Part shown: positions 7,906-45,214 of the stretch, in pieces
Position numbering within the stretch: position 1 is the first letter of the stretch
Layout of the letters: each line of letters begins with the position of its first letter
DNA from: Schmidtea nova
Taxonomy: Eukaryota
Direction: 5' to 3'
DNA length: 64,000 nt
NCBI GenBank assembly: GCA_044892505.1
Contig: CM097884.1
Coordinates: 20,522,001 to 20,586,000, forward strand
The notes under the pieces: generated by a model
Told to the model about the DNA's origin: nothing
Databases searched by the model: none
The model's input: the letters and a program-made list of their open reading frames with translations, nothing else
Position numbers and translations under genes: made by a program

Positions 7906-7908
<3 letters not shown>

Positions 7909-25460: not shown

Positions 25461-26373
25461 TATTTAAGTGACACGAATTAAAATCATGTCTTATGACATC
25501 TAGCGTCAAAAGTTAAAAAAGTAAAAACAAATTAGCCCCTAGAAGTCTTTAATTTATTATTTTACTACATTTTAAGATACTTAATGAAAAATAAAATATA
25601 AATAATATAAATTGCATAATCCCTAGAAGGTTTCAGTCAATAAAGTATTAAAAATAACAAAAATCTACAAAAATTTACAAATTAAAAAATAATCAATAGG
25701 ATCAGATAATAAAATCAATAAATTATTGCATAAGGCATCACATAAAATCTACAAATTAAATAAAAATGCACCACAAAAGAATCAAATCAGTAAAATCAAT
25801 TGTCAATGTTAATAAAATACATCAATAAAGTGCATCAGAATAATTTGGACTAGAATCAATAAGGTTCATCGAACTGATTGTACTTGAATTTCTCATTATT
25901 CTTTGCAATGTATATATTATTAATATATTGATCCTATACCTGTTTGAGCATATTATATATAAGCGTTGATTATTTTTTAATCTAGGAATTTCTACATTTT
26001 GGAATGAAGAATGTAACAAAAGAAATTGCAAATCACCAAAAAAAGGTAAGTGTACATCAGTTAGATAAAACTTTAAAAAACATGGAGCAAATTATTAATT
26101 TTTCATTTGATTAATTTTTATACTTCAATATGTGTAAGTCTTTTTGAAAAAATCAAACATCTAGTCCTATGATTTTTCTGGATGAAAATCTTATTTTCTC
26201 TATTAACATCTCTTATTTTTGTTTTAAAATCTTTTAGAATATTTGAAATTGTAGAAACTACTGTACATGTTCAACTATCGTATTATGTCACTTAATTTCT
26301 TTCCTTTTTTTAAGTTGAGTTTTTCATTTTATTAACTTCATGAATTAAATACAGTAGACAGAAGTGTGCTCCA

Positions 26374-26586
26374 TGACTCATCGTTAAACAAAGACAATGA
26401 CGTCATCGATGAGTCACCCATACCCCCCCGCCCCCCCGATGACTCATTTTTTTCTTTGTTATGACTCATCGATGACGTCATCGATGACTCATCGATGACG
26501 TCATCGATGACTCATCACATGACTCATCGATGACGTCATCGATGACTCATTTCAAATTTGAATTTTATGACGTCATCGATGACTCA
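26374..26586. promoter_or_regulatory. Outer AP-1/CRE array (9 TGA[C/G]TCA + 5 TGACGTCA)
   Basis: Counted directly; sites are mostly in optimal ATGACTCAT / ATGACGTCAT context. Function is inferred. Confidence 0.7.
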
Positions 26587-26680
26587 TTTCAAATTTAAAT
26601 TTTAAATTTCCAAAGGTCAAATAAGGTCAAACCTTCAAACAAGGGTATCATTCGAAAGGTCTTTGAAAGGTCTATCCAAT

Positions 26681-27170
26681 GGTCATACCTTCGAAGGTGT
26701 ATGGAGGGTCCTTAACCTTCAAGGGGTCAAAAACCTTTAACCTTTTACAATCCTTACAAGTTATATATCAAACAAAAGGTAATTGAGAGGTAAGTATGAT
26801 GGTCATACCTTTGAAGGTGTATGGAGGGTCCTTAACCTTCAAGGGGTCAAAAACCTTTAACCTTTTACAATCCTTACAAGTTATATATCAAACAAAAGGT
26901 AATTGAGAGGTAAGTATGATGGTCATACCTTCGAAGGTGTATGGAGGGTCCTTAACCTTCAAGGGGTCAAAAACCTTTAACCTTTTACAATCCTTACAAG
27001 TTATATATCAAACAAAAGGTAATTGAGAGGTAAGTATGATGGTCATACTTTCGAAGGTGTATGGAGGGTCCTGAACCTTGAAAGGGTCAAAAACCTTCAA
27101 CCTTTTTTAATTCTTATAATATGTACATCAAACAAAAGATAATTGAAGGGTGAGTATAATGGTCATACCA
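26681..27170. repeat. 120-bp tandem repeat, ~4 copies, inside the TIR
   Basis: Units start at 26681, 26801, 26921 and 27041 (last one diverged). Mirrored at ~43490-43980. Confidence 0.95.
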
Positions 27171-27194
27171 TTGAAGATTAAATTGTTTTCTTAA

Positions 27195-27396
27195 TGACTC
27201 ATCGGTATGATTTATTTGGATGACTCATTGGGATGACTCATCTACATGATTCATCAGTATGACTCATCAGTATGACTCATCAGTATGACTCATCAGCATG
27301 ACTCATCAGTATGACTCATCAGTATGACTCATCAGTATGACTCATTGGTATGACTCATCGGTATGACTCATCAGTATGACTCATCTACATGACTCA
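27195..27396. promoter_or_regulatory. Inner AP-1 array (14 TGACTCA, mostly 13-bp period)
   Basis: Unit tgactcatcagta repeated. Function is inferred. Confidence 0.7.
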
Positions 27397-28136
27397 TCAA
27401 CAAAAACAAATATTAACAAAGATATTGCAATGCACGTGCAAATTAACAAAGACTTTGCAAAGTGAATGCAAAGAAACAAAGACTAATGAAATATAATTTT
27501 TAATAATAATAATTTTTTGTACAGAGATAACTTGTGTGTGTGTGTGTGTGTTTAAGACAAATTACTGTACTCATTGAACGCGCGTGAAACGCGCGTTCTT
27601 CTTCCTTGTTGTATAAGACAAATCACAGTACGCATTGAACGCGCGTGAAACGCGCGTTCTNNNNNNNNNNNNNNNNNNNNNNNNNNNNNNNNNNNNNNNN
27701 NNNNNNNNNNNNNNNNNNNNNNNNNNNNNNNNNNNNNNNNNNNNNNNNNNNNNNNNNNNNNNNNNNNNNNNNNNNNNNNNNNNNNNNNNNNNNNNNNNNN
27801 NNNNNNNNNNNNNNNNNNNNNNNNNNNNNNNNNNNNNNNNNNNNNNNNNNNNNNNNNNNNNNNNNNNNNNNNNNNNNNNNNNNNNNNNNNNNNNNNNNNN
27901 NNNNNNNNNNNNNNNNNNNNNNNNAAAAAAATATATACCGACTTATATAACTTATAAAAAACTTTATAAAAACCTTATAAAAAATAGAACAATCAAACTT
28001 ATAAATTAACTTATAAAAAAATTTTATAAAAAACCCTGTTATAAAATAGAACAATTAAAAACTAACACATGCAATTAATCGATAAAATTACACAATATAC
28101 AAATAATAATAACAAATAAAAAAATAAATAAAATAT

Positions 28137-31100
28137 TTATTTTTTAAATGAGAAAATAAAATTATTCAAATAATGTTTATNNNNNNNNNNNNNNNNNNNN
28201 NNNNNNNNNNNNNNNNNNNNNNNNNNNNNNNNNNNNNNNNNNNNNNNNNNNNNNNNNNNNNNNNNNNNNNNNNNNNNNNNNNNNNNNNNNNNNNNNNNNN
28301 NNNNNNNNNNNNNNNNNNNNNNNNNNNNNNNNNNNNNNNNNNNNNNNNNNNNNNNNNNNNNNNNNNNNNNNNNNNNNNNNNNNNNNNNNNNNNNNNNNNN
28401 NNNNNNNNNNNNNNNNNNNNNNNNNNNNNNNNNNNNNNNNNNNNNTGTAGACGGCCGATCCTCTAATTCTTCATGTATACGTCTAATGTATGCATTAATT
28501 CTGACCGCTTCTGTTGATTCTCGATCCTCCCAAACATCATCATCAACATCATTATTGTGCACTTCATTTATAATTGTGTTTTCTCCCCGATAATGACCAT
28601 ATGCATAGCTTTTGTTTTTAGACACCCAATTGCGTTTGTCGTCGTTGCAATTGAGTGCCGTTTTTATATTTTTTATACTATATAGTTGGTGATTTTTCGA
28701 ACATATTCGAAACTGCGGGACTTGGTATATCTTATTGTTATTAAAACAATCAAAGTAATTTGAATGGTGAAGCCCCGCAGTAGCTAAACATATACCCTTG
28801 GCTTTCATACTCTCTTCATCGCCAAGTAAACTATAACATTTGGGTCGAAGAAAAACCCACTCTTCATATTTGAAGCCCTTATTTTCGTCCTTAAATTTAC
28901 CTATAACAGAATCCAGATTACGTGAAAATAAGGGATGGTTAGGATTATAATTTGATGTATCCAAGAGTTGATCCCTAACCATAGCAGGCAAAAGAACAGA
29001 CAGTTTACAATTAATGATTTCAAGGAAGAAGGAATCAGTATCTCCTGCGACTATATTTATTTTACAATTAAATTCATTTCTATATTTTTGAAGCTCAACA
29101 TACTGTAATTCATACATTCTAAGTTTAGATAGGTCTAGTACCGTTTGACCTATGTAACTAGGCCTATCTAAACATACTGATTCCTTTCTTAAAAGCACAG
29201 AGATAAGGTTATCGTCTATTTTTGTGGTTTTCCTAAAATATGGACTACTGCTATAGGTAATTAACTTACGTGCAGAATTGCAAAGTCTTAAATTAATACG
29301 TTTTTTAAGATTCTCTACGGTCTTGCCGTAGAGACTGTTATTTAAAAGTTTAAAGTAATTCTTATCCAGCTTCGTGGTGGAAGAAGCTCGCAAAGCAGTA
29401 TTCGTATCCACGTATTTTTTAAATAAAGTAGTTTGCCTAAATCTTATGGCACGATGAATTTTGGTCACAACCACCCCTAACTTCAAAAACATCTGCAAAA
29501 GCCGCCAATGAAGCACATAATTTTTCTTTGGTAAATGCGTCAAAAGAAGCTTTTGCACCTTCGAGCCTGGCGCACACATCTTTTCAGCGGCTACTGGCAA
29601 ATCATCCAGTAAGTCGTGAATAGATGCCGGTATTTCTAAATCAACTTCTATGGTATAACCATAGCTAAGCTGACATAAATCAACCGTAGTGCATTCAAAC
29701 AAGATATTTTCAAGCAAGTGGTCATCCGTGACCCAAACAAAGTCTCCGTCCGGTAAGTTTTGTGAAAGAGCCCAGCCATACAGATTGTTAATATCTATGT
29801 ACAGCAACTCTGTATCTGAGCTCGTTCGCACATGATGTTTATTAACAAAAGTGAGGCCACCCCTGATTCCACCTTCAAAAAAGTTGTACATCTCCATATC
29901 GGTCAAAAGCTCGATAGGAGATTCCAAGGTCATTAAAGCAGAACACCAGCTCATGCCTGGTATGCCTAAAAAATTCAAAGGCTCAAGTCTGTTGTGAGCT
30001 ATACTTTTTGCTCGAAATTGTTGAAAATAATCAGCCAACAGAAATATGTCAAGTTTCATGTAAACCATCATATAATCAAATAATGAGGTACATGAATTTT
30101 CTCTCCATATTTCTTTTGCCTTTTCATAATCAGCAATATCGACACCTTCCCAAATCGGTGGCAATTCATGAGTAGACCTCAAGACTTCTAAAGATGTTGC
30201 TACGTCATATGGAAAAATCCCCTTACTAGTGATAATTGTCCCAATAAATTCCGAAGAAGTAAGTGGGAAAGATGATAAAGTTTTAACAAGACTATTTAGA
30301 GATTCACTTGCAAATTGGTATGAATCTATGAACTTCACTGTGAGTGATCCGATTCTCGCAAAAAGTGCTAGAAACTTTTCACTAGTGACAGGAACACAAC
30401 TAATGTTCCAAGATTCATACTTTGATAATCCGAATTTGAGGATATGATGCAAGTCATATCCCCTTAAATTATGAAATACTATAGGCAAAGTGTGTCTAAT
30501 TTGCCGAGAGACGTTACATTTTTTGCATGCTGCTCCAAGATAAGCACCTGTAAAGTGATCGTGATCTTTAACAGGATTTTCTATTACTTTTTCACACAAG
30601 TAGCAGTGTGTCGCAGCTTGGAAATTTATTATATCAGCATAAGTTAAAATAATCTTCTTATCATAATTTTTATAATAATAAGGTGTTACAATTTTTCTAC
30701 TAATTTGTTCAATTTCGTATAGAAACCGGTCAACACATTCAGTACCAAAAAATGATTTATAAAACTTCTCCCCAGTGAAATTATTGATACATAAAAGCCC
30801 TGCTGAAATGGGCAAGTGTTTTTGAAAGTACTTGGTGTCCCTAGGTAAGATTGCCTCAAAATCGGCATAAATGACAAATGGTGGTGTTACAGTCTTTTTC
30901 CAATCAGTGAATTCCAATAATTTATTCTTAGGCAGAGTGTATAATGTCGTACCTATTTGATTGGCATCACAAAGACCTCGATGACGGTTAAATGTGTCAG
31001 TATTACGAAAGCCATGTAAACACCTAGGGCACCATTTATTATAAATTCTCACTGGGGTTATTGAACTGTTTCGGCAATTAAGAAATCTATTTAAATCATA

Positions 31101-32473
31101 AATAGCTATGTAATGATAAGTTTTTTTAAATTCAAGCAAAAGTAAGTTTATCACTGTTTGTCCAACTATTTTGCTTTTATAAATAATATCTATATACGGA
31201 TGTTTCATCACTTCACTATTATTACTGATGTCAATTAATGCGTTTTCGTCGTAAGATAACACATTAATTGATAATCCTGGATTTAACAATTCAAATCGGC
31301 TAATGTTACTTAGCTTCATTGGCATGTCATTAATGTCATATCTAAGTGATGAAACATCGTAAGAAGAAGGTAGATTTCTAATATTTTCAGGAACTTCGTT
31401 GAAATGTTTAGCTGCTAAAACACTATATAGAAAACAAAGATTGTCGGTGTTGATGACATTGATTACACAATTCTTATGAATAAGAGATTTAGGAGTCTCA
31501 ATAAATTGTTTACCGCTTAACCTGCTTATCTCAGAATATTTGGTCAATACAAAACTTATGTATTCAATTTTATTTATTTTCCAATTCGAACCCTTCTCGT
31601 TCATTTGTGATATTTTTTCATTTAGTATAGTAATACCTTCGTCAACAAAGGTATTACTCCAAAAACGGGCGGAATTTGAAATAACAAAAGACTGATATTC
31701 GTCATCTTTTTCAAATTCCACCATAATACAAAATTGAATTTTAACAGATTTCATTTGAGAAATAATAGAATTTAATTTACTAAGCAAAAGAGAAGGAACT
31801 GAAAGAGTATTTAAATTTAAATGGGCAACATCCATCTTAACGATAATGTGCGATTTATTGAGGTCAGAGTCAACAGTTAAAAGACCTGTACCTATTTGAT
31901 TCACAGAATAAGAGTTGATAATTAAAGGTGTTATTTCCTCCTCATCAGACGAAATAACAATAAGATCAGATTCGTCGTCACTAATATTAATTATTTCGAT
32001 TTTATTAGGATTTTCTATTTTATTGATTTTAGGTAATTTATTAACAATTTCATTTTCTGTTATATGTTTTCGTTTTAATAAATTGGGAACGCTGTCCACA
32101 TTATTTTTTATTAATTTGGGAACGCAGTCCACATTAAAAGAGTTTGGAACAGAGTTCACATTATTTTTTAATAAATTGGGAACGCAGTCCACATTATTTT
32201 TTAATAATTTGGGAACGCAGTCCACATTAGATTGATTATTTTTTAATGTATTTGAAAATATGTTGTTAAAAAGAGTCTTTTTTGATCCTGTAAATTGACT
32301 TAAATGATTTCGATGTTTGCGATAAAAGTTTATATATGTGCTTGTTTCTAAAACTTTGCATATGGGGCATATCAGGTAAAAAACACAATTATATTTTTGC
32401 AAATAATACTTTTCCATAAGACTGTGACAGTCATTATGCAAAGTACTATTGCAGTATGCTGTGTAATATTTGC
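28137..32473 (-). CDS. polB: Protein-primed family B DNA polymerase (pPolB), main exon
   Basis: Pol motifs YIDINNLYG, KLLNNSLYGK and GDTDS; exonuclease motifs YADFE, FHNLRGYD and YMKLD; EndoVII-like CYLC..DHDHFTG..AACKKCN; N-terminal CPIC..H. The frame is open back to a ttag acceptor at 32474-32475. The true stop probably lies in or near the N gap 28181-28445. Confidence 0.97.
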
Positions 32474-32679
32474 CTAAATTAAAAATAAAAACATAAGACT
32501 ATAAGTTTTTTTAAATATTTTTATAGTAATAATTTGTTTATTATATTGATATCATAAAATATCATTGATTAAAATATATATCACATTTAAAGTAATAGAT
32601 TTTCATATCATTGAGTTCATAACAATAAATTAAAATTTTCTTAAAAATTAACAATACTTATAATTACTATACAACTAAT

Positions 32680-33051
32680 ATTGAATTTATACCATAAATT
32701 CCATATTAAATTTATACCATAAATTCCATATTGAATTTATACCATAAATTCCATATTGAAATTATACCATAAATTCCATATTGAATGTATAATATGAAAA
32801 ATAAAATTATTATAAAATCAAAATATATCTTTCTTAAAAATTATTATATAATCAATATACATCTTTCTTAAAAATTATTATTATAAAATCAATATACATC
32901 TTCTTAAAAAATATTATAAAACGAAAAAATATAGTAATTATAAAATGAAATATATATGTCTGTCTTAAAAACAATTATTATACATTCAATATGAAATTTA
33001 TAGTATAAACTCAATATGGAATTTATACTATAAATTCAATATCAGTTGTAT
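32680..33051. repeat. 25-bp tandem repeat (4 copies) with an inverted degenerate copy, flanking a second AT-rich repeat
   Basis: attgaatttataccataaattccat at 32680, 32705, 32730 and 32755; reverse-complement copies at ~32980-33051. Confidence 0.85.
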
Positions 33052-33140
33052 AAAATGAAAAATAATATATATCTTTTGTACACAAAATAAAATCATTACA
33101 AAATTAAAAATAAAATTATTACAAATTAAAAGTAAAAATA

Positions 33141-33761
33141 TTATAAAAATAATAAATATTTACATTTCTGACGACCATTATAACGGTCATCTACCAGATC
33201 TACTGGTGCAGCGTCCATAGAATCATCCCTATTCAGGGGCATATTATCATCCCTATTCAGGGGCATATTATCATCCCTATTCAGGGGCATATTATCATCC
33301 CTATTCAGGGGCATATTATCATCCCTATTCAGGGGCATATTTTCTTCCCTAATAAGGGGCATATTTTCTTCCATATTCAGAGGCTTAAAATTTTCGGTAT
33401 TTTCAAAATCATTTCTTTCTTCAGCTTTAAAATGAAAATAAATTTATAAATAATAAAATAATACAATAAATTACCATCAATGTCGACATTTAACCGCTCA
33501 TTTCTGCTTGCTGCCTCGTATTGATTTAAAATTGAAACATTTATTACTGAAATAATAATATTATTTTAATTAAAAATTATTTTAATTTTTACCATTTTTG
33601 TTCTCCTTTTCATTTTTAAAATTAATTGGCTTTGCTATATTATCAAACATGTTGCCTAAAGAAATTTACATGTTATAAAAACAATAAATTAAAAATAAAT
33701 TAATATTACCAATTTTGTTCATCTTTATCATTTTCTTGATATTTTCTGAAATATTCTGCAT
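33141..33761 (-). CDS. Four small spliced exons (33761-33710, 33655-33593, 33546-33475, 33424-33164) encoding an acidic repeat region; either the pPolB N-terminus or a stand-alone short protein ending at 33141
   Basis: Three GT-AG phase-1 introns (54, 46 and 50 nt) give one open frame MQNISENIKK...DIDAEERND...(MPLNRDDN)n...GRQKC. The donor at 33163 is phase-compatible with the polB acceptor. Confidence 0.7.
33224..33372. repeat. 24-bp coding tandem repeat (MPLNRDDN, ~6 units)
   Basis: atcatccctattcaggggcatatt repeated. Confidence 0.9.
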
Positions 33762-34241
33762 ATTTTTAATATTAATTTGAAAAAGTTTTTGTTTAAATTG
33801 TGACGAAATAATGAAAACATAGGGTATATATCACGTTTATTACAAACTTTATTCACGAGCCAATCACAAGCGAGATAGGGTAGAAAAAGTATGTGTGTAC
33901 ACTGAGTAAGTATGTTAAAAATCTCTCACCAAGTATGTGTGTTAATAATTCACTCACCAAGTATGAATCATGTCTTTGTTATATTGCACGATGCATGTCG
34001 GATGCAACGATACAAAGACACTACGTGACTAAAGTTTTTATGAAATATCTTATGGGTGTAGATGCAGATGTGAATACACCCAAGTTGATTTATATGTGAA
34101 ATAATTGAGTGTCTGCATGCGTGCCTGCATGCAATTTCTTTATAATTATCGAAAAGTATAGCTAGATGGATGTTAATCTGCAAATTGGATGTGAATTCTG
34201 CAAGTTTATAAAAAATAATAAATAAAACACAAATAATACAT

Positions 34242-34643
34242 TTATTGTTTTAAATAATCAATTACACCAGACAAGCAACCTTTATATGCACACATACTAT
34301 GGTCTTTATATGGACATAAGATATTTTCTGGAACATCTTCAAATTCTTTAAAATTATATTTAATTAATCTCAATTTCGGGAAATATTTCTTCAAAACTTG
34401 CAACTTTTCATTATCTGTAACATAGAATATAGCTCCTTTATTTTCAATATCATTCATAATGCATTTTGGACAAAAATAATCTTGTCCTTCAAACGATTCT
34501 ATACGATCAGGCCAGAAAGATAAATCACTGTATATATAATACAAGGGTGTGAAAATACTATTTACATTCATAATACATAATTCCTTAATAATTGTTCCTC
34601 CAATATCATTATAACCGTACATATCAATAAAATAACAAGTCAT
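34242..34643 (-). CDS. 133-aa accessory protein, possibly DEDD/RNase H-fold derived, with a C-terminal Cys/His cluster
   Basis: Clean ATG ORF in the operon-like array; N-terminal YFIDMYGY...IIKEL and C-terminal CPYKDHSMCA. Family call is tentative. Confidence 0.65.
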   Translation of the reverse strand: MTCYFIDMYGYNDIGGTIIKELCIMNVNSIFTPLYYIYSDLSFWPDRIESFEGQDYFCPKCIMNDIENKGAIFYVTDNEKLQVLKKYFPKLRLIKYNFKEFEDVPENILCPYKDHSMCAYKGCLSGVIDYLKQ

Positions 34644-34675
34644 TTTTTACAATAACATTTATTAAACTAAATTGT

Positions 34676-35051
34676 TTATAACATTGATTTTAGCCATGCA
34701 AGGCAATGTTGTCCACAAGTGATTGTTAATGGATGTTGATACCGAATTCTATTATACACAATAGGTTTACCAATAGTTTGTAATTTTCGAACAAGTAAAT
34801 TTGGATAATAATATCCAAAGGGATCAAATACATGTATCCGATCCGGTTTCACGTAAACCGCAATCCAATGTTCACCGCCCAAAGTAGAAGTGTGAGTATT
34901 TACAATGATGGCTTGATTCATTTTCAAATAAGGAATTTTATCTAACGGAAAAACTCCAATAAACTGGTTTCCCAATAGTTTTTTACCTTGTTGTAATACC
35001 TGAATAGAACTAATTAAAATAATAAATTATTCAATTAAAAACTTACTCCAT
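34676..35051 (-). CDS. Adenain-like cysteine (maturation) protease; join(35051-35047, 35009-34676)
   Basis: GEHWIAV, FDPFG and YQ....CGQHC catalytic motifs. A 37-nt GTAAGT...TAG intron restores MDSIQVLQQGKKLLGNQFIGVFPLD. Confidence 0.92.
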
Positions 35052-35088
35052 AATAATAGAAATAATAATAACTTTGGTTATTTATACT

Positions 35089-35169
35089 GTTTGAGCTCTG
35101 CTCAAACCAATACTGCTCAAATCAGCAATGTTTGAGCTCAAACCAATAATGTTTGAGCTCTGCTCAAAC
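35089..35169. repeat. Three GTTTGAGC(TCT)GCTCAAAC palindromes between the MCP stop and the protease start
   Basis: 35089-35107, 35130-35143 (no loop) and 35151-35169; a half site lies near 35114. Confidence 0.85.
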
Positions 35170-36384
35170 CAGTACTGTTCGATTGGCAGTAATTTGTACT
35201 TCATTTTCAAACAATCCATATATAATTACATGAACCGGTTCATCAATGGGTTTTGCAAACTTTATATCTAGCCTTAAATTACCGTTTTGTGGGATTTGAC
35301 TTTGATTTAAATCGAAATCGGGAGCCAGAACAAATGTAAAGAATGGATATTTTGCTTTAAATTCATCCAGACTTATACCACAATTCAAGTTTTTATCCAA
35401 ATATCCTAAATTTCGGACAAGACTTTGCATATATGTGGCACTAAAATTATCATTTTCAAAATCTTGAGTATAAGTTTCTCGATAATCGGTATTTTTCGAC
35501 AATGATAATGAAGTTACATTAAAGTGTTTGAATGAAGATGAAGATTCAGCATATGATCCGTTATATTGATTTTCAGTTTGAAAAGCTACAAGAATGAAAT
35601 TAGGCATTCTTCTATCTCCAAATATTTGCTCCTTGTAAAATGATGATGCACCTTTCCCAATAGCAAACGATACGATTTCTTTGGATTTTATCGGATAAAT
35701 TGCATGTTTGCTATTTAAACCAATTTGATGACCGGCCAAAACTGAAGATTCACACCGAACTCTTCTTACCATTAATTTAGCGTCTACTAATTGGAGTATT
35801 GGTTTCCCAGTTGCCGATTTCAGTGATAATGCAGAATCAGATCGCTTCAATCTAATATGTACATTAACTCCGGGAAGTAAGTATTTAGGTTGATCCATAA
35901 AATCAAGTTGTAATGATGAACACATGTTAAAAAGTTTCGATCCCTTGATCCACTTTTTTCTATCGTCACTTGCACCATATCCCATTGGAGTAAGACAAGT
36001 TTCTTTTGAATCGTTCGTATAATTTAAAATAGTTTCGATTATTGCCTTGTGTGCATATGTATTGTTTCCACCCTCGATTTTTATATTATTAAATCCAAGA
36101 ATCACATCTTTGAAAAGTGTATGAAACAAGTAATTATTAGGTACTACATCACTCGCATCAACTAATTTATTTTTATCTTTATCTACAACTTTGACCGTAA
36201 CGGATAATAACGTATCGTTCAAATCCAAATATTCGGTTGCCGATCCATTAATGTAAAATTCAACATCATTTCTACTATCTGTAATAGAATTCATTGGAAA
36301 CACATCTTCAAACACCCCATATTCAATAACTGCTTGGGGGCTTGGTCGATCAAAAATACATAATTCAGATTTACCGCAAATCAT
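35164..36384 (-). CDS. Major capsid protein (double jelly-roll, Polinton PY/hexon-like)
   Basis: 406 aa; KSELCIF..P.Q, VEFYI.G...YLDL..T.L.V.VKV and C-terminal GNLRLDIKF....V.VIIYG patterns typical of Polinton MCPs; expected position. Confidence 0.9.
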   Translation of the reverse strand: MICGKSELCIFDRPSPQAVIEYGVFEDVFPMNSITDSRNDVEFYINGSATEYLDLNDTLLSVTVKVVDKDKNKLVDASDVVPNNYLFHTLFKDVILGFNNIKIEGGNNTYAHKAIIETILNYTNDSKETCLTPMGYGASDDRKKWIKGSKLFNMCSSLQLDFMDQPKYLLPGVNVHIRLKRSDSALSLKSATGKPILQLVDAKLMVRRVRCESSVLAGHQIGLNSKHAIYPIKSKEIVSFAIGKGASSFYKEQIFGDRRMPNFILVAFQTENQYNGSYAESSSSFKHFNVTSLSLSKNTDYRETYTQDFENDNFSATYMQSLVRNLGYLDKNLNCGISLDEFKAKYPFFTFVLAPDFDLNQSQIPQNGNLRLDIKFAKPIDEPVHVIIYGLFENEVQITANRTVLV

Positions 36385-36761
36385 TCTTCAAATATTGTTC
36401 CATGACCTTTCATTCGTTTGTTTATACGTCTTCGTTTACGTCTTGGTCCTACTGGTACAGGTTCCGGTTCATTTTTTGTAAACATATTTGTAATTGAAGG
36501 AATCATTTTTGTTACAGTAGGTATAGCTTTATTAACTTCGGCCAAAGCATTTGTTTTCAATGATGGTAATATTTTATTATCTTTCATGATAACATCCTTG
36601 GCAGTATTGAATCCAAAACTACCCAGTCGCTTAAGTAGTGGAAGTGCAAATCTACCAATAGTTTTCAACCAACCTGATCCATATTGTTTACCTATAAAAT
36701 ATGGTAATTCGCCACCAGTTTGGCTATTACTGTACAAAGAAACTATATCTGGATTACTCAT
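36381..36761 (-). CDS. PZ / pVI-like core protein
   Basis: QTGG..PYFIGKQYGSG followed by the amphipathic helix WLKTIGRFALPLLKRLG and a basic tail RRKRRR. Confidence 0.75.
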   Translation of the reverse strand: MSNPDIVSLYSNSQTGGELPYFIGKQYGSGWLKTIGRFALPLLKRLGSFGFNTAKDVIMKDNKILPSLKTNALAEVNKAIPTVTKMIPSITNMFTKNEPEPVPVGPRRKRRRINKRMKGHGTIFEE

Positions 36762-37779
36762 GATGTTTTCGAAAATGTAGAGTCAAATGAGTTTTCGAAT
36801 TTTTTGGAAAGTTTATTAAATTACCTTTATCATCTCGGATATTTATTTCTATATTGTTTATACAGGATGTTGAAACAGTTACATACATTGGATTTTCAAC
36901 TTGTATTTGAACAACCTCATCCTGTTCATATTTTTCAATCCATACCGATTTCAGTAAAGGAACCAATGAATCTCCAACAATTATAGGTTCAATAATGTTA
37001 CTGTAAATGAACATTTGCTGATGAAGTTTAATTATTTTCGGTTTATTTATTCCAGTAGTGAATTTTCCATCTTGAGCATATGTTGCTTTCAATAAACCCA
37101 ATGTTTTTACTAGGTTATTATCAAAAGTTATTTCGCTAACATCTGGATTCAAACTGAATTTGAAGTAAGTATCATCTAACAATTCCACCGACTTAAAAAT
37201 ACTTGCACAATTTAGAATTAAATATGATTTCATTTCATCCAGTTTCGATATGTATAAATTATCGGCAAATGTATGGATAAATACAGAATCAGCCTTATAC
37301 TCCATCTTTAATCTAATATTTTCAGTAACTGGACCATCTATACCATAATATGGTAACGGTATCTTGTATGTATCTGTAGGACTTACAATACTCTGTTTCG
37401 TTAATCCCATTCTTTTCGCCATTGCCAAAGTATCAAATGTTATAGTGAAGGGAAAATGATCACAGGTAAAATAAATAGATTGTCTATCACTCAACATTTG
37501 AGCAATATCATCGGCAGGATTAGATATGTCAACTTCACAAAATTGATTGTTAATAATCAAATTTTTATATTTTGTATGTATAGTTTTCTTTTTGTATCGA
37601 ATTTCAGCTTTACTGTAAAATGGAAATGGATTATACACAAATGTAAAGTCTAAGAGAGCGACTTCCCAAATCCCGTCCAAATACATTGGATTTTGGAGAT
37701 TGACCATGAAATTACTTGCTGTATTATCTGGATGTATGTCTGGACAACTGTTGCTAGGTAGAATCATATAAAAATTCAT
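36754..37779 (-). CDS. Minor capsid protein (penton-like, single jelly-roll)
   Basis: MNFYMILPSNS..NT.SNF...L...WEVAL; MFIYSNII....VGD..VPLL; NIEINIRD..G..I.F. Start at 37779 (ATGA overlap with the integrase stop) is preferred over 37806. Confidence 0.9.
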   Translation of the reverse strand: MNFYMILPSNSCPDIHPDNTASNFMVNLQNPMYLDGIWEVALLDFTFVYNPFPFYSKAEIRYKKKTIHTKYKNLIINNQFCEVDISNPADDIAQMLSDRQSIYFTCDHFPFTITFDTLAMAKRMGLTKQSIVSPTDTYKIPLPYYGIDGPVTENIRLKMEYKADSVFIHTFADNLYISKLDEMKSYLILNCASIFKSVELLDDTYFKFSLNPDVSEITFDNNLVKTLGLLKATYAQDGKFTTGINKPKIIKLHQQMFIYSNIIEPIIVGDSLVPLLKSVWIEKYEQDEVVQIQVENPMYVTVSTSCINNIEINIRDDKGNLINFPKNSKTHLTLHFRKHHE

Positions 37780-38820
37780 TTTACTAGGTTTTTTGACGAT
37801 ATCCATGATGGTTCCTTATATCCATGCCACTTGACATAGTATTGTTTATCCTTACCTACCATTTTAGTTTTCAATATTTTTTGAATTCTAAATATTGTCG
37901 GTGGAGGTATAACTTGTAATTCTTGTTCATAGAATTTCCCACTGACTATATTGTTATCAGAGTCAGAAATAGTATACATGACAGGATTCTGGACTGTGTT
38001 GACCTTCGATATTTTAAATACCTCATCACTCCAATTACTATCAAAATTTTTAATGAATGGCGATGCACTAATTTTACTAATTCGAACATGATCACCTATT
38101 TTATATTTTGGTTTCTTGATTATTGTATCACTCACGATATTTTCAGTATTAACTACTTCTGCAGGTTTCCTGCCATTTATACCTCGATGAGCAGAATGAT
38201 TATAACTATGGATCATTTGTGGTAAAACATTAATCCATGTTTTATTACCTTGATGTACAAAATACTTTTTGAGCCGATCTCGTAATGTACGATTAAATCT
38301 CTCGACATGAGCGGCTTTGAATTGCGAGAATACCGAATAATGATTGATTCCCTTGATAACTTCCTTGACTTTACTGTTGTAAAATTCCTTACCTAAAAAA
38401 TATTAAATCAATAAATTATAATTAAAATTTACCCAAATCGGTTTGTAAATTTGTTGGACGATCCTTTTTCATCATTGCTTTGATCGCGATTGCCATATCA
38501 TTACCAGATTTCGATTTTACTGCGATTGCCCGCGCAAAACGACTGTAAACATCAATACATGTTAAAATATACTTGTATCCCTTGTTAATTTTTGAATACG
38601 GAATCATTTCCATCAAATCCATTTGCCACAAATCATTGATTCTATACGTTTTATATGATCTAGTTGGAAACCGTTTCAGCATCGGTTTGTTTAGACTGTA
38701 TGCAAGTTGCCCCGATAACCAGCTTTGTGTCTGTTGTTTCGACTTCTGTACTTTTTTCCTTAACTTTTCGACTCCACCGAAACCGGCTTCGTCTTTCGGG
38801 TTCGTCCAGATCTTCTCCAT
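37776..38820 (-). CDS. Retroviral-type DDE integrase with C-terminal chromodomain; join(38820-38433, 38392-37776), 334 aa
   Basis: WQMDL (D1), LTCIDVYSR, QTDLG|KEFYN (D2, rejoined across a 40-nt GT-AG intron), HVERFNRTL (E), YNHSAH, chromodomain IQKILK...YYVKWHGY..PSWI. Confidence 0.95.
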
Positions 38821-38875
38821 TACAACAAGAAGATTTAAAGTTTAAATTTAAATTAGGTAATGATTGACCCATTGT

Positions 38876-39403
38876 TTATGACGTTCTTTTTCCCAATAAA
38901 CCAGCACCACCTAATAACGATAAAGCTAGGGGTAATAATGCAGCAATAAACCCTCCTTGTTGTTTATATATTATTTTACGCATAAGTTTTTTATTTTTTG
39001 TTTTTACAAGTGATAACAATGGTTTTTTATGCTTGTTCAAAACCCGACGATTAGAAGGAGTTAGATTCATTTTACCTCGTACGACTTTAATTAAAATAGC
39101 GAGTAAATCATCAATGACGTAATTGGGAAACGACTGAAGAATACCCATTCTTCTAGCACTGGGGGCTTTTAGCAATGCATTAAAAAACGGAAAACTCCGA
39201 TGATGTATTTGTTTAGGATTAGATTTCAAAATAGGGGGAATTTGATTTTGTTTGGGAAAATTATCCATAATTAGTTTTTTCGAAGGAGTATAACTTGTTT
39301 TAGAAACGGGTTTCGAAACTGATTTCTTTGTTTTCTTTGTTTTCTTCATTGTTTTTCTTGCCTTTATCAAGCGCTCAAACTTTACTCTAGATTTCATTAA
39401 CAT
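38876..39403 (-). CDS. Basic core protein with pX/mu-like C-terminus
   Basis: Lys-rich. Ends KQQGGFIAALLPLALSLLGG, resembling adenovirus pX GGFLPALIPIIAAAIG. Confidence 0.75.
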   Translation of the reverse strand: MLMKSRVKFERLIKARKTMKKTKKTKKSVSKPVSKTSYTPSKKLIMDNFPKQNQIPPILKSNPKQIHHRSFPFFNALLKAPSARRMGILQSFPNYVIDDLLAILIKVVRGKMNLTPSNRRVLNKHKKPLLSLVKTKNKKLMRKIIYKQQGGFIAALLPLALSLLGGAGLLGKRTS

Positions 39404-39423
39404 GATTACTACTGTAAATATAT

Positions 39424-40047
39424 TTAACTTTGTTTATAAACCATGGCTCCTTCCTTGTTAAAAATATCTGTTCTAACTCTTAAATCATCACTGCATTGTT
39501 GCGTAAAATCCAAGAAAAGATATCCATGAGGAGCTTTTGTAGCATCCTGAAACGCATCAATCAAGAAATTCCGATTAGAGGGGTATGCTTGTCTTGCCAG
39601 AAAATCAATAACTGTTGCATCACGAGGATTTTTAAAAACAACAAGATATTGAACATTTAAATTACGAGTTCGATGACTACCACCCTGATGAAATAAATTC
39701 TGAGTAATAAAAATAACTGTAACACCTTTGTGTCTAGCGATTTTCGTAAATAAATTATTAAAATCCTTTTCTTTATTTGCTTCTTGATACAAGTCATCAA
39801 TAATAATCACATCCCATTCTCTTAATCTAGATGACCAGTTTTTATCGAAACCTTTTATGATTGTCATTTTTATTTTACAAAACTGATCTTGAGTCATACC
39901 GCTTTCGTCGTCAGCACCCCTATGCCAATAAATTTTATTAAACTTTGATTTGAATAATTTAGATTGTAATAATTTACAAACAAATAAAGTTTTTCCGCTC
40001 CCGCTCGGGCCGACAATTTGGTACACTGCATCATTTCTTAATTCCAT
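39424..40047 (-). CDS. A32/FtsK-like DNA packaging ATPase
   Basis: Walker A GPSGSGKT, Walker B IIIDD, motif C ARH.GVTVIFITQNLF. Confidence 0.95.
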   Translation of the reverse strand: MELRNDAVYQIVGPSGSGKTLFVCKLLQSKLFKSKFNKIYWHRGADDESGMTQDQFCKIKMTIIKGFDKNWSSRLREWDVIIIDDLYQEANKEKDFNNLFTKIARHKGVTVIFITQNLFHQGGSHRTRNLNVQYLVVFKNPRDATVIDFLARQAYPSNRNFLIDAFQDATKAPHGYLFLDFTQQCSDDLRVRTDIFNKEGAMVYKQS

Positions 40048-40136
40048 TTTTGTAATTATTTATTAGTATTATTATTGTTTATATTGATTAAAATATTAAT
40101 TATCTCTTTGTTGTTAGATTTAAAATATTTTTAATA

Positions 40137-40604
40137 ATGATTAGAAACATTAATTACAAGGGTAAGACAGATGTGTCGCACATGATATTTCCAACTGGGA
40201 AACCACAGCAAATTGTAGATAGAAGTGGAAAATACCCAATAATATACTTTAAGACAGGCAGATATAGAATAATGGGATGCAAGGAATTTATTAGTGATGA
40301 AAAAGTAAAGTCTCACGATTTAACAATACAATCGATAACTGTGACTGCAGATTTAGGATTTATTTGTAATTTAAATGAGTTATCTAAATTGATTCCATGT
40401 GTTTATGAACCAGAATTATTTCCAGCTTTAAGATATACAAAATATAATCCAATGTGTGTCAATATTTTTGCTAGTGGTAAAGTAGTCATATTAGGATTAA
40501 AAAATAAAGACTATGCTAATATAGTTGATAATATTATTAACGATATAAAATCAATTATAGAAGATAAAGCCTTTGTTGATTTCATACTAACATGTGACTC
40601 ATGA
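40137..40604 (+). CDS. TATA-binding-protein-like protein (155 aa, core-only)
   Basis: Repeat 2: IQSITVTADLGF..L..L....VYEPELFPALRY..NPMCVNIFASGKVVILGLK, matching the TBP C-terminal repeat. Repeat 1 is shortened: IRNINYKG...GKPQQI...PIIYFKTGRYRIMGCK. Confidence 0.88.
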   Translation: MIRNINYKGKTDVSHMIFPTGKPQQIVDRSGKYPIIYFKTGRYRIMGCKEFISDEKVKSHDLTIQSITVTADLGFICNLNELSKLIPCVYEPELFPALRYTKYNPMCVNIFASGKVVILGLKNKDYANIVDNIINDIKSIIEDKAFVDFILTCDS

Positions 40605-40738
40605 CTGCAATATTCATGCAATGGAAATGCACGATTCTGATTGGTCGAGTGTGTATCGATAGAATAAAGACATGTTGTGCATACTTTATTCTTATTGGTT
40701 GAAAGTTGTTCATTTCGTACATGATGTGTGTTTCTATC

Positions 40739-40748
40739 GTATATATAC
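40739..40748 (+). promoter_or_regulatory. Putative TATA element upstream of the 40782 gene; ATTGG (CCAAT) boxes near 40641 and 40694
   Basis: gtatatatac 34-43 nt upstream of the ATG. Confidence 0.4.
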
Positions 40749-40781
40749 TAAGAACATTCGTTCATAATTTAGATTTTAAAA

Positions 40782-41367
40782 ATGTGTTTAAAAGAAACTA
40801 TGTTAAAAAGTGGTAAGGATTTTAATTAATTCTTTTCAATTTTAATATAATTTCTTTTTAGAAAAATTAATGAATGTCCTATATGGAAAGCTGGAGGAGA
40901 TGTTCCCGAATTTAATGACATCCCTGACTTATACGGCACCAGAACTCTTTCCGTATAAGATTCAGGTGCTGACTGGAATTGATGTCAATCAGCTCATCCT
41001 CGATCATCGGGCAAATAATCTCAATGAATTGCCAGTGGTAGCCGAGCACTTTCTCTGTGCATATAAGTGCGGAAATTGCGTGGAGAGGATCCGCCGATTC
41101 AATATTTGGCTCCTCAGAAACGCATTGAAGGAATTCGAGAATCAAAACCTCGAAACAATTGAGGAAGAAGATATGAAGGAGTCCTGGCCAAATTCGACTC
41201 CGGATCAATCTGATTGCCCAACTCTGGATGGGCCATATCCTATCGAATCGGATGAGCCAATGGAGTCTCCCGAATCTCCAGATTGTGCGGAATGCCACCG
41301 TAAGGCAGAGGATTGTGATGATAAAATAGGTTCGCAATCTCTTGGTGGTGATCCGTCAGACATTTAA
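40782..41367 (+). CDS. 178-aa acidic, Cys-containing accessory protein; join(40782-40812, 40862-41367)
   Basis: G|GTAAGG...TTTAG 49-nt phase-1 intron joins MCLKETMLKS to EKLMNVLY. Coding exon is GC-richer than its flanks; CGNC and CAEC; D/E/P/S-rich tail. Confidence 0.75.
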
Positions 41368-41937
41368 ATGTTGTTATTTTTTAGTTTAATGTCATTTTAG
41401 TTTGGTTATTTTTTAGTTTAATAAAAGTTTTTTAATGATTTTAGTTTTTATTGATTTTAGTTTTTTAGTGATTTTAGTTTTTTAGTGATTTTAGTAATAG
41501 TTTTTAAGTATTAGTTTTTACTTGACTTTAAGTTATTATTTTGAATTTAATTAATTATTTTAACTTTAAGTATTTAGTATTAAACTTTTTATTTACTAAG
41601 ATTAAAAAATAGTATTTGAATAAAAATTATTGTGAAATAAATTATTGTGATATAAATAAATACATATTTTATCCATATTTTATTATTGTGATATAAATAA
41701 ATACATATTTTATCCACTAACAGATCCTTACTATCAGTACATTAGTAGCAGAACATCTTTTGTTATGGTTTTTATGTGCAAAAGCTCATTACTTGAACAC
41801 ACACACACACACACACACTTACAACAAAGACATGCATAACGCGTGCAATACAAATGCATGATTGTGATTGGACAAAGGCATCCAGTCCTCACTATAAATA
41901 CAAAGTCATTTCTACAAATTTGTCACAATTTTTAAAA

Positions 41938-42354
41938 ATGGATTCACGAAAACGAGGTTATGATGTCAGCGAAGAAAGATTATTCCCGACTGAGGTGAAA
42001 CCAGTCCAGATGTATTATGATAGCCGAATCTATTTCTTGGTAGAAGAAATTCCGTTTCGCTTATCTTATCCCGTAAAATTAACAAAGTCGTTGTTTGATA
42101 ATCTATCTATTATTATTGATAAAGAGGATATTATCGCACTAAATAGAGTATTTTCAAAAATCAATGTGAATTTAATTTGTAAAGAAACGATGTATATCAA
42201 TAACAGGAAGACTCGTTTCCATAATGCTTATCAAACAATCGATTTCATTGATCAAGAACACTGGTTCGTTACGATAATCATTCAAGGATACAAGGTTGAT
42301 AAAAAGGAAGTGACAACTCCAATTTGGAGAGTTGATAATGCACGATACGCCTAA
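41938..42354 (+). CDS. 138-aa hypothetical protein, possible OB-fold ssDNA-binding protein
   Basis: ATG 41938 lies downstream of ATTGG (~41866) and TATAAATA (41893). Beta-rich C-terminus WFVTIIIQGYKV...PIWRV. Family call is weak. Confidence 0.65.
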   Translation: MDSRKRGYDVSEERLFPTEVKPVQMYYDSRIYFLVEEIPFRLSYPVKLTKSLFDNLSIIIDKEDIIALNRVFSKINVNLICKETMYINNRKTRFHNAYQTIDFIDQEHWFVTIIIQGYKVDKKEVTTPIWRVDNARYA

Positions 42355-42415
42355 TTGTTATTTAATAAATTTTACTATGAACAAATTTAGTTTTTTATTT
42401 TATTTTGTATTTAAA

Positions 42416-43018
42416 ATGAAACTGCTTATAACCATGTTTGTATTTTTATTGTGTGTTCAAAATACTGATGGAGAACAGGCTTTAGAAGCTTGCCAATCAA
42501 CCCATCCGTTTAGAAGAGAAGATAGTACTTGTGCGAGTTATAATGAAATATGTGTTTACTCAAACACTGAATGCAATCAAATAAAATTACAATGTGATCA
42601 ATGTCCTTCAAAAAAAAATAATTTGATTAATAATGATATTGAAAAAATAATTAGCAAAATAAAATTACAATGTCCTTCAAAAAATGATTTGATTAATAAA
42701 GAAATGGAAAAAATAATGATGAAAATAATGATGAAAATTGTTGAAAGTTTGAAATGTACGAATCAAACAATTGTTAAAAAACAATATGAAGTCAGATACC
42801 AAAATCAAACAGTTGAAAGCGAAAAAACATCGATAGTTTTACATTACATAAGTTTATTCATATTAATAATGATCTTGATATTGGCAACATCGATAAGGTT
42901 AGAGAATATTAATAAGAATAAAATTCCTGTAAATAATGTTCCTATGAATAATATTCCTAGTAGTAATAATTTTGAATCCAAATTTTGTACACGGTCGCAA
43001 CAATATATTTATAAATAA
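42416..43018 (+). CDS. 200-aa type I membrane glycoprotein with a Cys-rich ectodomain
   Basis: Signal peptide MKLLITMFVFLLCVQNTDG, Cys cluster, internal IKLQ..CPSK duplication, two NQT sequons, TM segment IVLHYISLFILIMILILATSI, short cytoplasmic tail. Confidence 0.8.
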   Translation: MKLLITMFVFLLCVQNTDGEQALEACQSTHPFRREDSTCASYNEICVYSNTECNQIKLQCDQCPSKKNNLINNDIEKIISKIKLQCPSKNDLINKEMEKIMMKIMMKIVESLKCTNQTIVKKQYEVRYQNQTVESEKTSIVLHYISLFILIMILILATSIRLENINKNKIPVNNVPMNNIPSSNNFESKFCTRSQQYIYK

Positions 43019-43049
<31 letters not shown>

Positions 43050-43052
43050 TAA

Positions 43053-44295
43053 ACAACAAGGGAAGAAGAACGCGCGTTTCACGCGCGTTCAATGAGTACA
43101 GTAATTTGTCTTAAACACACACACACAAGTTATCTCTGTACAAAAAATTATTATTATTAAAAATTATATTTCATTAGTCTTTGTTTCTTTGCATTCACTT
43201 TGCAAAGTCTTTGTTAATTTGCACGTGCATTGCAATATCTTTGTTAATATTTGTTTTTGTTGATGAGTCATGTAGATGAGTCATACTGATGAGTCATACC
43301 GATGAGTCATACCAATGAGTCATACTGATGAGTCATACTGATGAGTCATACTGATGAGTCATGCTGATGAGTCATACTGATGAGTCATACTGATGAGTCA
43401 TACTGATGAATCATGTAGATGAGTCATCCCAATGAGTCATCCAAATAAATCATACCGATGAGTCATTAAGAAAACAATTTAATCTTCAATGGTATGACCA
43501 TTATACTCACCCTTCAATTATCTTTTGTTTGATGTACATATTATAAGAATTAAAAAAGGTTGAAGGTTTTTGACCCTTTCAAGGTTCAGGACCCTCCATA
43601 CACCTTCGAAAGTATGACCATCATACTTACCTCTCAATTACCTTTTGTTTGATATATAACTTGTAAGGATTGTAAAAGGTTAAAGGTTTTTGACCCCTTG
43701 AAGGTTAAGGACCCTCCATACACCTTCGAAGGTATGACCATCATACTTACCTCTCAATTACCTTTTGTTTGATATATAACTTGTAAGGATTGTAAAAGGT
43801 TAAAGGTTTTTGACCCCTTGAAGGTTAAGGACCCTCCATACACCTTCAAAGGTATGACCATCATACTTACCTCTCAATTACCTTTTGTTTGATATATAAC
43901 TTGTAAGGATTGTAAAAGGTTAAAGGTTTTTGACCCCTTGAAGGTTAAGGACCCTCCATACACCTTCGAAGGTATGACCATTGGATAGACCTTTCAAAGA
44001 CCTTTCGAATGATACCCTTGTTTGAAGGTTTGACCTTATTTGACCTTTGGAAATTTAAAATTTAAATTTGAAATGAGTCATCGATGACGTCATAAAATTC
44101 AAATTTGAAATGAGTCATCGATGACGTCATCGATGAGTCATGTGATGAGTCATCGATGAGTCATCGATGACGTCATCGATGAGTCATAACAAAGAAAAAA
44201 TGAGTCATCGGGGGGGGCGGGGGGGTATGGGTGACTCATCGATGACGTCATTGTCTTTGTTTAACGATGAGTCATGGAGCACACTTCTGTCTACT
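43053..44295. repeat. Right terminal inverted repeat (1243 bp)
   Basis: Reverse complement of the left TIR. AP-1 arrays at 43264-43465 and 44074-44274. Confidence 0.95.
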
Positions 44296-44375
44296 AAATA
44301 CACACAATTTAGAAATTATATGAGTTGCTTTCATGACGTTAATGAATAAATAAAATTAGTTATCTTATCATTAAC

Positions 44376-45214
44376 GGTATCCCGGCAAAATAGCCCAGAC
44401 AATAAAACTCAATTTATTGGAATTGTCAACATTTATTAATGAAATACAAAAAGCTGAAATGATTGAAATGTATCCAAATCATCTCTGTATCGGTAATGAA
44501 ACCAATCTATAAACATTATTATAATCTGATCTAATGGTTCACTAGGTGAAATGTTAGCAGTTAGGTAAATAAACTTGTTTTAGAGTCAAGTTTACAAACA
44601 TTAGAATAAAGTTTTATGGATGGGAGCTGTCAATCAATCACAGAATCGTGCAGTACAATTAAAAAACGGTGCGATCATAAAGAAAATCTTAATCAATTGA
44701 GTCTATAATTGCATTTTAATTTAAATAAAATTCGACCTCAACAACTAATTATGGAGAAAAAAAAATCTCAGAAAGGAAAAGAGTTTCTATTAAACGATGG
44801 ATTTCGCTATCGCAAGGCGAAAGTCAATGCTGACGGAAGTGCATCGTGGAGATGTGTCGAGGCCAATTGTAAAGGAAGATTGAAGGTAGTTGAAGATTCT
44901 GCCACAACGATTACCGAGCATGGTCATCCAGTTGACTTTTCGAAGAATGAAGCTGCCAAGTCAGTTGCAGAGATGCGGAGACGCGGAGACGTGCTGCTGA
45001 GGGCGTTGAGAAACCTCGTCAGATAATTCAACTTTTTTAATAGAATGATAAAATAAACAGTAATTTAGTTGCAATTTTTTAATTTTCTAGTAATCTCAAT
45101 AAAATAGCTTTTTTTAAACCTAATTAAACCTTTTGAGCCTTTATTTTATTAATAAATGTTGACGGGGCTATTTTGTCGGGGCTATTTTGTCCTGGGCTAT
45201 TTTGACGGGCTACG
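44376..45214 (+). mobile_element. Non-autonomous MULE (Mutator-like) element, 839 bp
   Basis: 9-bp TSD ATCATTAAC (44367-44375, 45215-45223). Termini ggtatcccggcaaaatagccc / gggctattttgacgggctacg; three ggctattttg subrepeats at the right end. Confidence 0.9.
44751..45026 (+). CDS. FLYWCH zinc-finger (truncated MULE transposase N-terminus)
   Basis: SQKGKEFLLNDGFRY...WRC....CKGRL....H.H. Confidence 0.8.
   Translation: MEKKKSQKGKEFLLNDGFRYRKAKVNADGSASWRCVEANCKGRLKVVEDSATTITEHGHPVDFSKNEAAKSVAEMRRRGDVLLRALRNLVR

Follow-up and report, generated by a model that had tools for sequence, protein, structure and literature searches.

The window analysed here, 64,000 nt of Schmidtea nova contig CM097884.1 (positions 20,522,001 to 20,586,000; coordinates below are those of the window), contains a Maverick/Polinton, a member of a family in which an rve integrase inserts the element, a protein-primed PolB (pPolB) replicates it from its termini and MCP, penton, ATPase and protease make up a virion module (PMC4028283, PMC11161782, PMC6431247, PMC10748475). 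The element spans 26353-44295, a size of 17,943 bp, which falls within the ~13-25 kb of the family. An intact, young Maverick is by itself ordinary, 134 intact copies having been reported across 17 vertebrate species (PMC8097293). What appears to set this one apart, judging from its sequence, is the presence of predicted introns in core genes together with a minimal TATA-binding protein (TBP) and a matching promoter motif, features not described for animal Mavericks in the literature searched.

Boundaries, gene content and coding state

The element begins and ends with AGTAGA...TCTACT, giving AG/CT termini, and is abutted on both sides by AAATAC, a perfect 6-bp target site duplication (TSD) for which a chance match, given the flank composition, has a probability of ~8 × 10−4. 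Its terminal inverted repeats (TIRs) align over ~1,241 bases with no substitutions and five indels: three are slips of one base in homopolymers, the others a 12-bp repeat unit and a (TG)3. A first-pass annotation of the sequence had claimed just these features, with TIRs differing only by repeat-number and homopolymer slips, and had called the element young. The 95% upper bound on TIR divergence is 0.24%; at 2 × 10−9 to 1 × 10−8 substitutions per site per year, a rate that is our own assumption, the element would be younger than about 0.1-0.6 million years. The low divergence thus stands behind the word young, which is qualified by the N runs: eight lie in the whole window, two of them within the element, several adjoin repeats, and assembly may have homogenised the TIR arms. 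No second copy or fragment of the Maverick was found in the flanks within the window. A CG-rich unit at the TIR inner end is doubled on the left (27568-27660), where it continues into the N run, and single on the right (~43060-43100).

On the minus strand the genes run, in order of transcription, ATPase, basic core-like, integrase, penton candidate, second core-like, major capsid protein (MCP), protease, Maelstrom-like open reading frame (ORF) and polB, and the plus strand carries the TBP-like gene and three ORFs without assigned function (Table 1). Two animal-type Maverick contigs from other assemblies, L001 (12.7 kb) and L002, were compared with it. L001 carries polB, ATPase, both core-like genes, integrase, penton, MCP, protease, a TBP-like gene and a Maelstrom-like gene; L002 ends before the region able to show a TBP-like gene.

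Table 1 Features of the element, in window coordinates, and of the two compared contigs, each in its own coordinates.
Feature	Coordinates	Strand	Basis or remarks
Left TSD, AAATAC	26347-26352		Direct read and TIR/TSD comparison
Left TIR, 1,260 bp	26353-27612	+	12/23-bp, 37-bp, 4x120-bp and 16x13-bp arrays
N run, 264 nt	27661-27924		Adjoins repeat at inner end of left TIR
N run, 265 nt	28181-28445		Covers polB tail and stop
pPolB main exon	28446-32473	-	Conserved part ends ~28590
Predicted upstream polB exons A-D	33761-33710, 33655-33593, 33546-33475, 33424-33164	-	Within 33164-33761
Maelstrom/DEDD-like ORF, 133 aa	34242-34643	-	Atlas matches
Protease, adenovirus-type cysteine	34676-35051	-	Predicted intron 35046-35010; PF00770 above cut-off
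MCP, 406 aa, double jelly-roll	35164-36384	-	AlphaFold and Foldseek
Basic core-like protein in PW position	36381-36761	-	GG/GxG sites, amphipathic helix
Minor capsid (penton, PX) candidate	36754-37779	-	Position and homology to L001
rve integrase with chromodomain	37776-38820	-	Predicted intron 38432-38393
Basic core-like protein	38876-39403	-	23% K+R, GG site, hydrophobic C-terminal pX-like peptide
Packaging ATPase, A32-like	39424-40047	-	PF04665 above cut-off; Walker A/B and later motifs
TATAAAC sites	40083, 39438, 38968, 36862, 36426, 34680 (span 34674-40083)	-	Upstream of integrase/virion-block genes
TBP-like protein, 155 aa, two-lobed TBP fold	40137-40604	+	Predicted model and homology
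Acidic ORF	40782-41367	+	Predicted intron 40813-40861; GATTGG and TATATA upstream
138-aa ORF	41938-42354	+	GATTGG and TATAAATA upstream
200-aa predicted type I membrane protein	42416-43018	+	Hydrophobic N-terminus, Cys-rich ectodomain, one transmembrane segment
Right TIR, 1,243 bp	43053-44295	-	Left-right TIR alignment
Right TSD, AAATAC	44296-44301		Direct read and TIR/TSD comparison
L001 Maverick contig	1-12666		Filed in bacterial metagenome-assembled genome, probably contaminant
L002 Maverick contig	1-4976		Ends within MCP; two tandem penton-like genes, one split; bacterial metagenome-assembled genome, contamination likely

Motif, alignment and fold tests agree on a Maverick/Polinton gene set. 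The genes for MCP, minor capsid protein and ATPase are each one uninterrupted open frame, integrase and protease are open on either side of a predicted 40-nt and 37-nt GT-AG intron, respectively, and all core genes are free of stops once predicted introns are removed, the 3' end of polB sitting in an N run; on both gene set and open frames the first-pass annotation had said as much. The integrase combines PF00665 (E = 1 × 10−8) with a chromodomain, its D, D and E motifs being spread over two exons; the protease keeps all its His, Asp, Gln and Cys motifs; and the penton candidate, one gene away from MCP, is 28% identical to that of L001 (E = 6 × 10−30). We regard Maverick/Polinton identity and coding intactness as practically certain.

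The structure prediction that had been proposed as a check on MCP returned the double jelly-roll fold. MCP has 155 relatives at E ≤ 0.001, the closest 84% identical, and an alignment of 107 of the 120 relatives listed was the input to AlphaFold; the resulting model (pLDDT, the predicted score of the local distance difference test, 91.7) matched double jelly-roll capsids in Foldseek, the top PDB entries being those of an iridovirus and PBCV-1 (E = 4 × 10−16). MCP departs from its relatives at 2 of 84 highly conserved columns, and the relatives' median is also 2. Its departures were considered as lesions and set aside: H227 is also found in P0001, C211 occurs in 4 of the 107 relatives, and a one-residue gap falls in a variable loop.

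The polymerase contains a Cys/His domain, a terminal-protein-position region, the vOTU Cys/His, Exo I-III, an EndoVII/HNH insert and Pol A-C, comparable to the pPolB architecture described as TP-vOTU-Exo-Palm (PMC11161782); the terminal protein was placed by position and alignment alone. The Exo and Pol motifs and the vOTU-position Cys/His are common to the protein and the 123 relatives in its alignment (those of at least 1,000 aa among 150 listed), and it departs at 4 of the 108 columns that are at least 90% conserved in them, again the relatives' median (4). Since no PF03175 match was found at E up to 0.05, the enzyme falls in the Beta class by the criterion of Starrett et al. (PMC8502044), and by its sequence it is a Beta/group 1 polymerase. 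The frame is open for 1,350 codons to the N run; homology stops at ~28590, 47 codons ahead of that run, so the gap hides only the variable tail and the stop. A disabling mutation in the gaps, which the first-pass annotation had named as a refutation, would fall outside the conserved part of polB. Two candidate lesions were rejected: an AGDTDS form of motif C, which recurs in close relatives, and a 10-residue shortening near ORF position 780, which removes a Phe found in 121 of the 123 long relatives and is common to P0216, P0223 and P0228, three of the nine other aligned relatives covering the spot, all three being 52-56% identical.

These results bear on whether the copy is older than it looks or dead, its TIR identity stemming from assembly homogenisation or gene conversion and its lesions hidden in N runs or presumed introns. 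Every TIR difference is indeed of a slippage or read-error type, and the two N runs inside the element, with others in the window adjoining repeats, leave room for such an account. The Maelstrom-like ORF, whose Atlas matches are unnamed eukaryotic clusters (0.96) and a Maelstrom cluster (0.85), is shorter than its L001 relative, lacks its second acidic residue and may be degenerate. Against a dead copy, ~11 kb of AT-rich coding sequence is free of stops and frameshifts apart from canonical GT-AG segments, the loss of conserved residues equals the family median, the polB N run lies beyond the conserved end, and other repeat pairs of the window retain 1-25% divergence. We consider such decay quite improbable. 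A second recent repeat, 557 bp long, is present in two copies at 47158-47713 and 62120-62676 (99.5% identity).

The closest described systems are the "Beta adintoviruses", with which the element shares an OTU-PolB without PF03175, rve integrase, FtsK/A32 ATPase, adenain, hexon, penton, TIRs and a Maelstrom-like accessory gene, MAEL being labelled on their maps (PMC8502044). The element differs from them in having a TBP-like gene and introns in addition and in showing no gasdermin-like (GasderminX/PZ) ORF; no gasdermin Pfam match was obtained, and no unassigned ORF within the element has the size of GasderminX. Intact vertebrate Mavericks (Barreat and Katzourakis 2021, PMC8097293) have the same size, TIR range, 6-bp TSD, AG/CT ends and int-mcp-pw-Mcp-pro order, but theirs are intronless, carry pz and pm, mostly form two opposed modules and end in (AGT)2, whereas here a single strand carries every core gene, splicing is predicted for three of them, and the ends read AGTAGA. 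That study defines an intact element by eight conserved intronless ORFs including pz; here integrase and protease are interrupted and no pz was seen, which departs from a working definition and not from a family-defining one.

Predicted introns in core genes

We predicted seven GT-AG introns from the DNA alone, six of them in core genes: one of 40 nt in integrase, one of 37 nt after the second codon of protease, and four of 54, 46, 50 and 690 nt at the 5' end of polB; the seventh, of 49 nt, lies in an accessory ORF. The six core-gene introns are 87-93% AT. The integrase intron splits a motif that runs unbroken in L001 and L002, both of which lack the intron, and exon 2 of the protease aligns to the intronless L001 protease almost from its start. 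We therefore take the integrase and protease introns to be very probably real.

For polB the case runs differently. The gene has no ATG ahead of its conserved N-terminal Cys/His domain; this domain of the long ORF matches the N-terminus of P0217 (E = 1 × 10−8) and starts before the first ATG, so upstream exons are needed. Four candidates (A-D, Table 1) give junctions that are all phase 1 and stop-free. Their splice sites were picked visually out of 12 donors and 11 acceptors, and exons A-D could instead be a separate gene, both of which weigh against the predicted polB structure. The long polB intron (32474-33163, 87% AT) contains 25-bp and 34-bp tandem arrays, and the adjoining exon has an in-frame 24-bp repeat.

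Gain in this lineage is the probable origin of the introns. No introns are reported in intact vertebrate Mavericks, with agreement with Kapitonov and Jurka 2006 cited (PMC8097293). Introns are documented in dinoflagellate Maverick-Polinton-like proviruses through introners, and group I introns in cryptophyte polinton-like viruses (PMC12220804). The dinoflagellate elements (PMC11957031) share spliceosomal introns in full-length elements with the present one; theirs are repeated intron-making transposons in elements of protists, whereas here the introns are short AT-rich segments of an animal-type element and show no sign of a repeated family. If true, the introns would show nuclear RNA polymerase II (Pol II) expression, and they would imply that ORF-based screens misclassify such Mavericks as broken.

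Core-gene introns absent from L001, L002 and intact vertebrate Mavericks are also what would be expected if the element were mobile only within the genome, with introns gained during long residence and a capsid that forms an intracellular shell or no infectious particles. Such confinement would fit with two further points, namely that no fibre or fusogen was recognised among the element's genes and that Maverick particles had not been observed as of 2021 (PMC8097293). By sequence comparison, nevertheless, conservation of the whole morphogenesis module matches that seen in relatives, and the module includes core-like proteins that carry GG/GxG sites and an amphipathic helix. Virion competence is plausible, and the first-pass suggestion that the element may still excise, replicate and package is compatible with its gene set. 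Introns, moreover, are no bar to a nuclear virus: adenoviruses splice. We consider a purely genome-bound element unlikely.

A TBP-like protein and the TATAAAC motif

Of 101 candidate relatives of the TBP-like protein, 94 matched; 81 of these form a divergent group at 35-75% identity, and the 13 weaker ones are cellular TBPs or alike. In the predicted model (pLDDT 94.5) both lobes match TBP (Foldseek E = 1 × 10−9), and the TBP fold extends across the whole chain (VIA Z 12.0, root-mean-square deviation 2.7, 138 aligned, residues 1-145). By this two-repeat saddle fold, as modelled, the protein is a member of the TBP superfamily.

To describe its DNA face we aligned 75 sequences (the window protein, that of L001 and 73 of the 81, eight under 130 aa having been dropped) with 12 cellular TBPs, using yeast TBP numbering after Table 1 of PMC12529657, I194 excepted. 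Numbers were placed by motif, with ambiguity in the register of the first strand. Phe fills the columns of yeast F116, F190 and F207 in 75/75 sequences, and the acidic stirrup is kept in 73/75 and 75/75. Of the four Phe that intercalate in canonical TBP three are thus present, the F99 column being Pro in 74/75, and of its two Asn the second column (N159) is Ser in 74/75. Elsewhere V122 is replaced by Arg (72/75), T124 by Met (74/75), L205 by Asn (75/75) and I194 by Arg (74/75), which gives the protein a polar DNA face unlike that of cellular TBP. Residues R99 (74/75), N109 (75/75), S66 (74/75) and M46 (74/75) of this face are near-invariant, which suggests selection on a DNA-reading surface. 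In a quick tree the 75 Maverick-type sequences stand apart from the 12 cellular TBPs on a long branch, a placement that carries a long-branch warning.

The gene is linked to Mavericks. It is present in the independent locus L001 (36% identity, E = 6 × 10−23); two of 33 pattern matches in genome contigs encode an MCP relative; and, as indirect evidence, five of nine TBP-hit contigs of at least 5 kb are exactly as long as an MCP-hit contig (0/200,000 jitters). No description of animal Mavericks with a TBP-like gene or TATAAAC was found in the open literature, a search that covered the supplement of Starrett et al. in part and lay outside Repbase, so that prior annotation is possible. In the legend of Starrett et al. 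the TBP label is given only for elements of non-animal eukaryotes (PMC8502044), and the available portion of a 2026 preprint (10.64898/2026.10.13.758929) makes no mention of TBP or TATA.

The motif TATAAAC is the commonest 7-mer in the regions 150 to 20 nt before the starts of integrase/virion-block genes, occurring in 16 of 21, and the runner-up unrelated 7-mer reaches 7 of 21. By element the counts are 6/8 here, 7/8 in L001 and 3/5 in L002, against a background of 4-5% (binomial P = 9 × 10−8, 1 × 10−8 and 5 × 10−4, respectively). The sites fall in all three frames of the upstream genes and once in an intergenic position, so no single protein motif explains them. We judge it likely that TATAAAC marks a promoter class. 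Several points tell against it: the motif had been spotted by eye before it was tested; of the six window sites, five fall within the gene upstream, one of them across its stop, where protein constraint could help to maintain them; and ahead of the penton gene there is only a site with one mismatch.

A different arrangement precedes polB and two accessory genes, which have GATTGG plus TATATA or TATAAAT, that is, promoters of CCAAT+TATA type; the membrane-protein gene lacks the GATTGG and TATA pair. The TIRs are dense in further motifs, with 23 TGA(C/G)TCA and 5 TGACGTCA sites in the left and 23 and 4, respectively, in the right, ~22 per kb compared with 0.1-0.3 elsewhere; these are motifs of AP-1 and CRE type. 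AATAAA or ATTAAA lies near only three of eight late-block stops, "early" and "late" being our own labels.

Taken together, these features could reflect the following scheme. AP-1/CRE-type arrays in the TIRs and CCAAT+TATA promoters would enable host Pol II to begin with an early set consisting of polB and two accessory genes; the host spliceosome would remove introns; and integrase and virion genes, with bare TATAAAC promoters, would form a second class. We lean moderately towards such a nuclear, spliced, two-tier transcription model, which does not require the element's own TBP. In a further step the second class would be read by the minimal TBP, its acidic TFIIB-type stirrup kept and its polar DNA face remodelled, working much as herpesvirus viral TBPs do; that the protein is the reader of TATAAAC is a tentative proposal, to which we give a little under an even chance.

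Host factors might instead transcribe everything in an otherwise ordinary intact Maverick, the TBP-like protein being an accessory such as a TFIIB/NC2/Mot1 decoy or a repressor of early promoters. TATAAAC is one base from TATAAAA/T and may be no more than a TATA variant serving host TBP, TATAAAT (35086) stands before the protease gene, and wild-type TBP has been solved with a C(-25) TATA variant (title of entry 1qn3). The TBP-like protein has a reduced first lobe, lacking most of helix H1 and the first of the intercalating Phe, and on the model it may not bind DNA as TBP does; within 150 nt of its own gene, neither a TATA-type nor a CCAAT motif lies on the gene's strand; and no partner late factors were found among the element's genes. 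These points count against the reader proposal. Host transcription alone accounts less readily for DNA-face residues that are near-invariant in 75 sequences yet unlike those of cellular TBP, and for the preference that each of the three elements compared shows, upstream of these genes, for TATAAAC over TATAAAA/T. We give this host-factor account a substantial chance, still somewhat below even.

If the TBP-like protein does read TATAAAC, the nearest analogue would be ORF24 of Kaposi's sarcoma-associated herpesvirus, a viral TBP of beta/gammaherpesviruses that mimics TBP and reads TATT late promoters (PMC12529657). The two share a TBP fold, kept Phe, a polar face and a variant TATA before structural genes. 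ORF24 is large, works in a six-factor complex, has four Phe and lacks the TFIIB acidic residues, whereas the protein here has 155 aa, three Phe and an acidic stirrup and lies outside that family. TBPs of nucleocytoplasmic large DNA viruses (NCLDVs), archaea and cells have the same fold at <30% identity in fold searches; the quick tree covered cellular TBPs only. NCLDV TBPs serve a viral RNA polymerase, and none is encoded here.

Extended to the clade, the reader proposal would make certain animal-type Mavericks autonomous nuclear viruses whose ~150-aa TBP reads TATAAAC and recruits host TFIIB and Pol II, with no helper giant virus or viral RNA polymerase, this member being intron-bearing as well and still mobile; we offer this as possible, at rather less than an even chance. 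The element bears on how Mavericks time and transcribe their capsid genes and on whether they need a helper virus; the pairing of a minimal TBP to a defined promoter of 7 bases would, if true, be a third viral-TBP route beside those of herpesviruses and NCLDVs.

Accessory genes and flanking sequence

Neither the 173-aa nor the 200-aa ORF gave a Pfam or PHROGs match; the latter, a Cys-rich membrane protein, could be a cargo, attachment or immune-modulating gene. The 138-aa ORF looks by eye like a single-stranded DNA-binding protein, an assignment that was not supported, the ORF having no usable Atlas match and a PHROGs E of 0.07 and being unlike the L001 ORF in a similar role. The amphipathic helix of one core-like protein bears a resemblance to Cupiennin, an accessory virion gene of the Beta adintovirus class. 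No Rfam family matched, and a phage collection yielded no MCP relative and, for TBP, weak haloarchaeal virus matches only. Between the Maelstrom-like ORF and the polB promoter, 33884-34249 holds a 93-codon Cys/His-rich frame without ATG (minus strand), a 71-codon frame (plus strand), a segment resembling an intron and one further TATAAAC (34210), and is possibly a small or decayed gene.

Penelope, mariner/Tc1 and FLYWCH remnants occur in the flanks, which have 27% GC and show no CpG loss. On the plus strand, both sides of the element have exon-like segments bounded by AG/GT (17701-17874, 48394-48653, ~49248-49369, 60283-60396 and 60568 onward), and the element probably lies in a host intron, its core genes antisense. 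A homolog search with a candidate host exon gave no hit among 64 candidates, and Pfam matches were sub-threshold only; 17701-17874 and 48394-48653 have motifs reminiscent of CEP350/CCDC187, a likeness that the search did not confirm. On the left, a Penelope-like reverse transcriptase with GIY-YIG (6182-7701, minus strand) is flanked by (TA)n and inverted arms (6044-6135 and 7716-7807) and is interrupted near its 5' end, and a degraded Tc1/mariner with terminal inverted repeats occupies 24051-25471. On the right, a mariner transposase fragment lies at 50772-51503, and a FLYWCH zinc-finger ORF (44709-45023, plus strand) just outside the right end of the element is probably a Mutator-type remnant.

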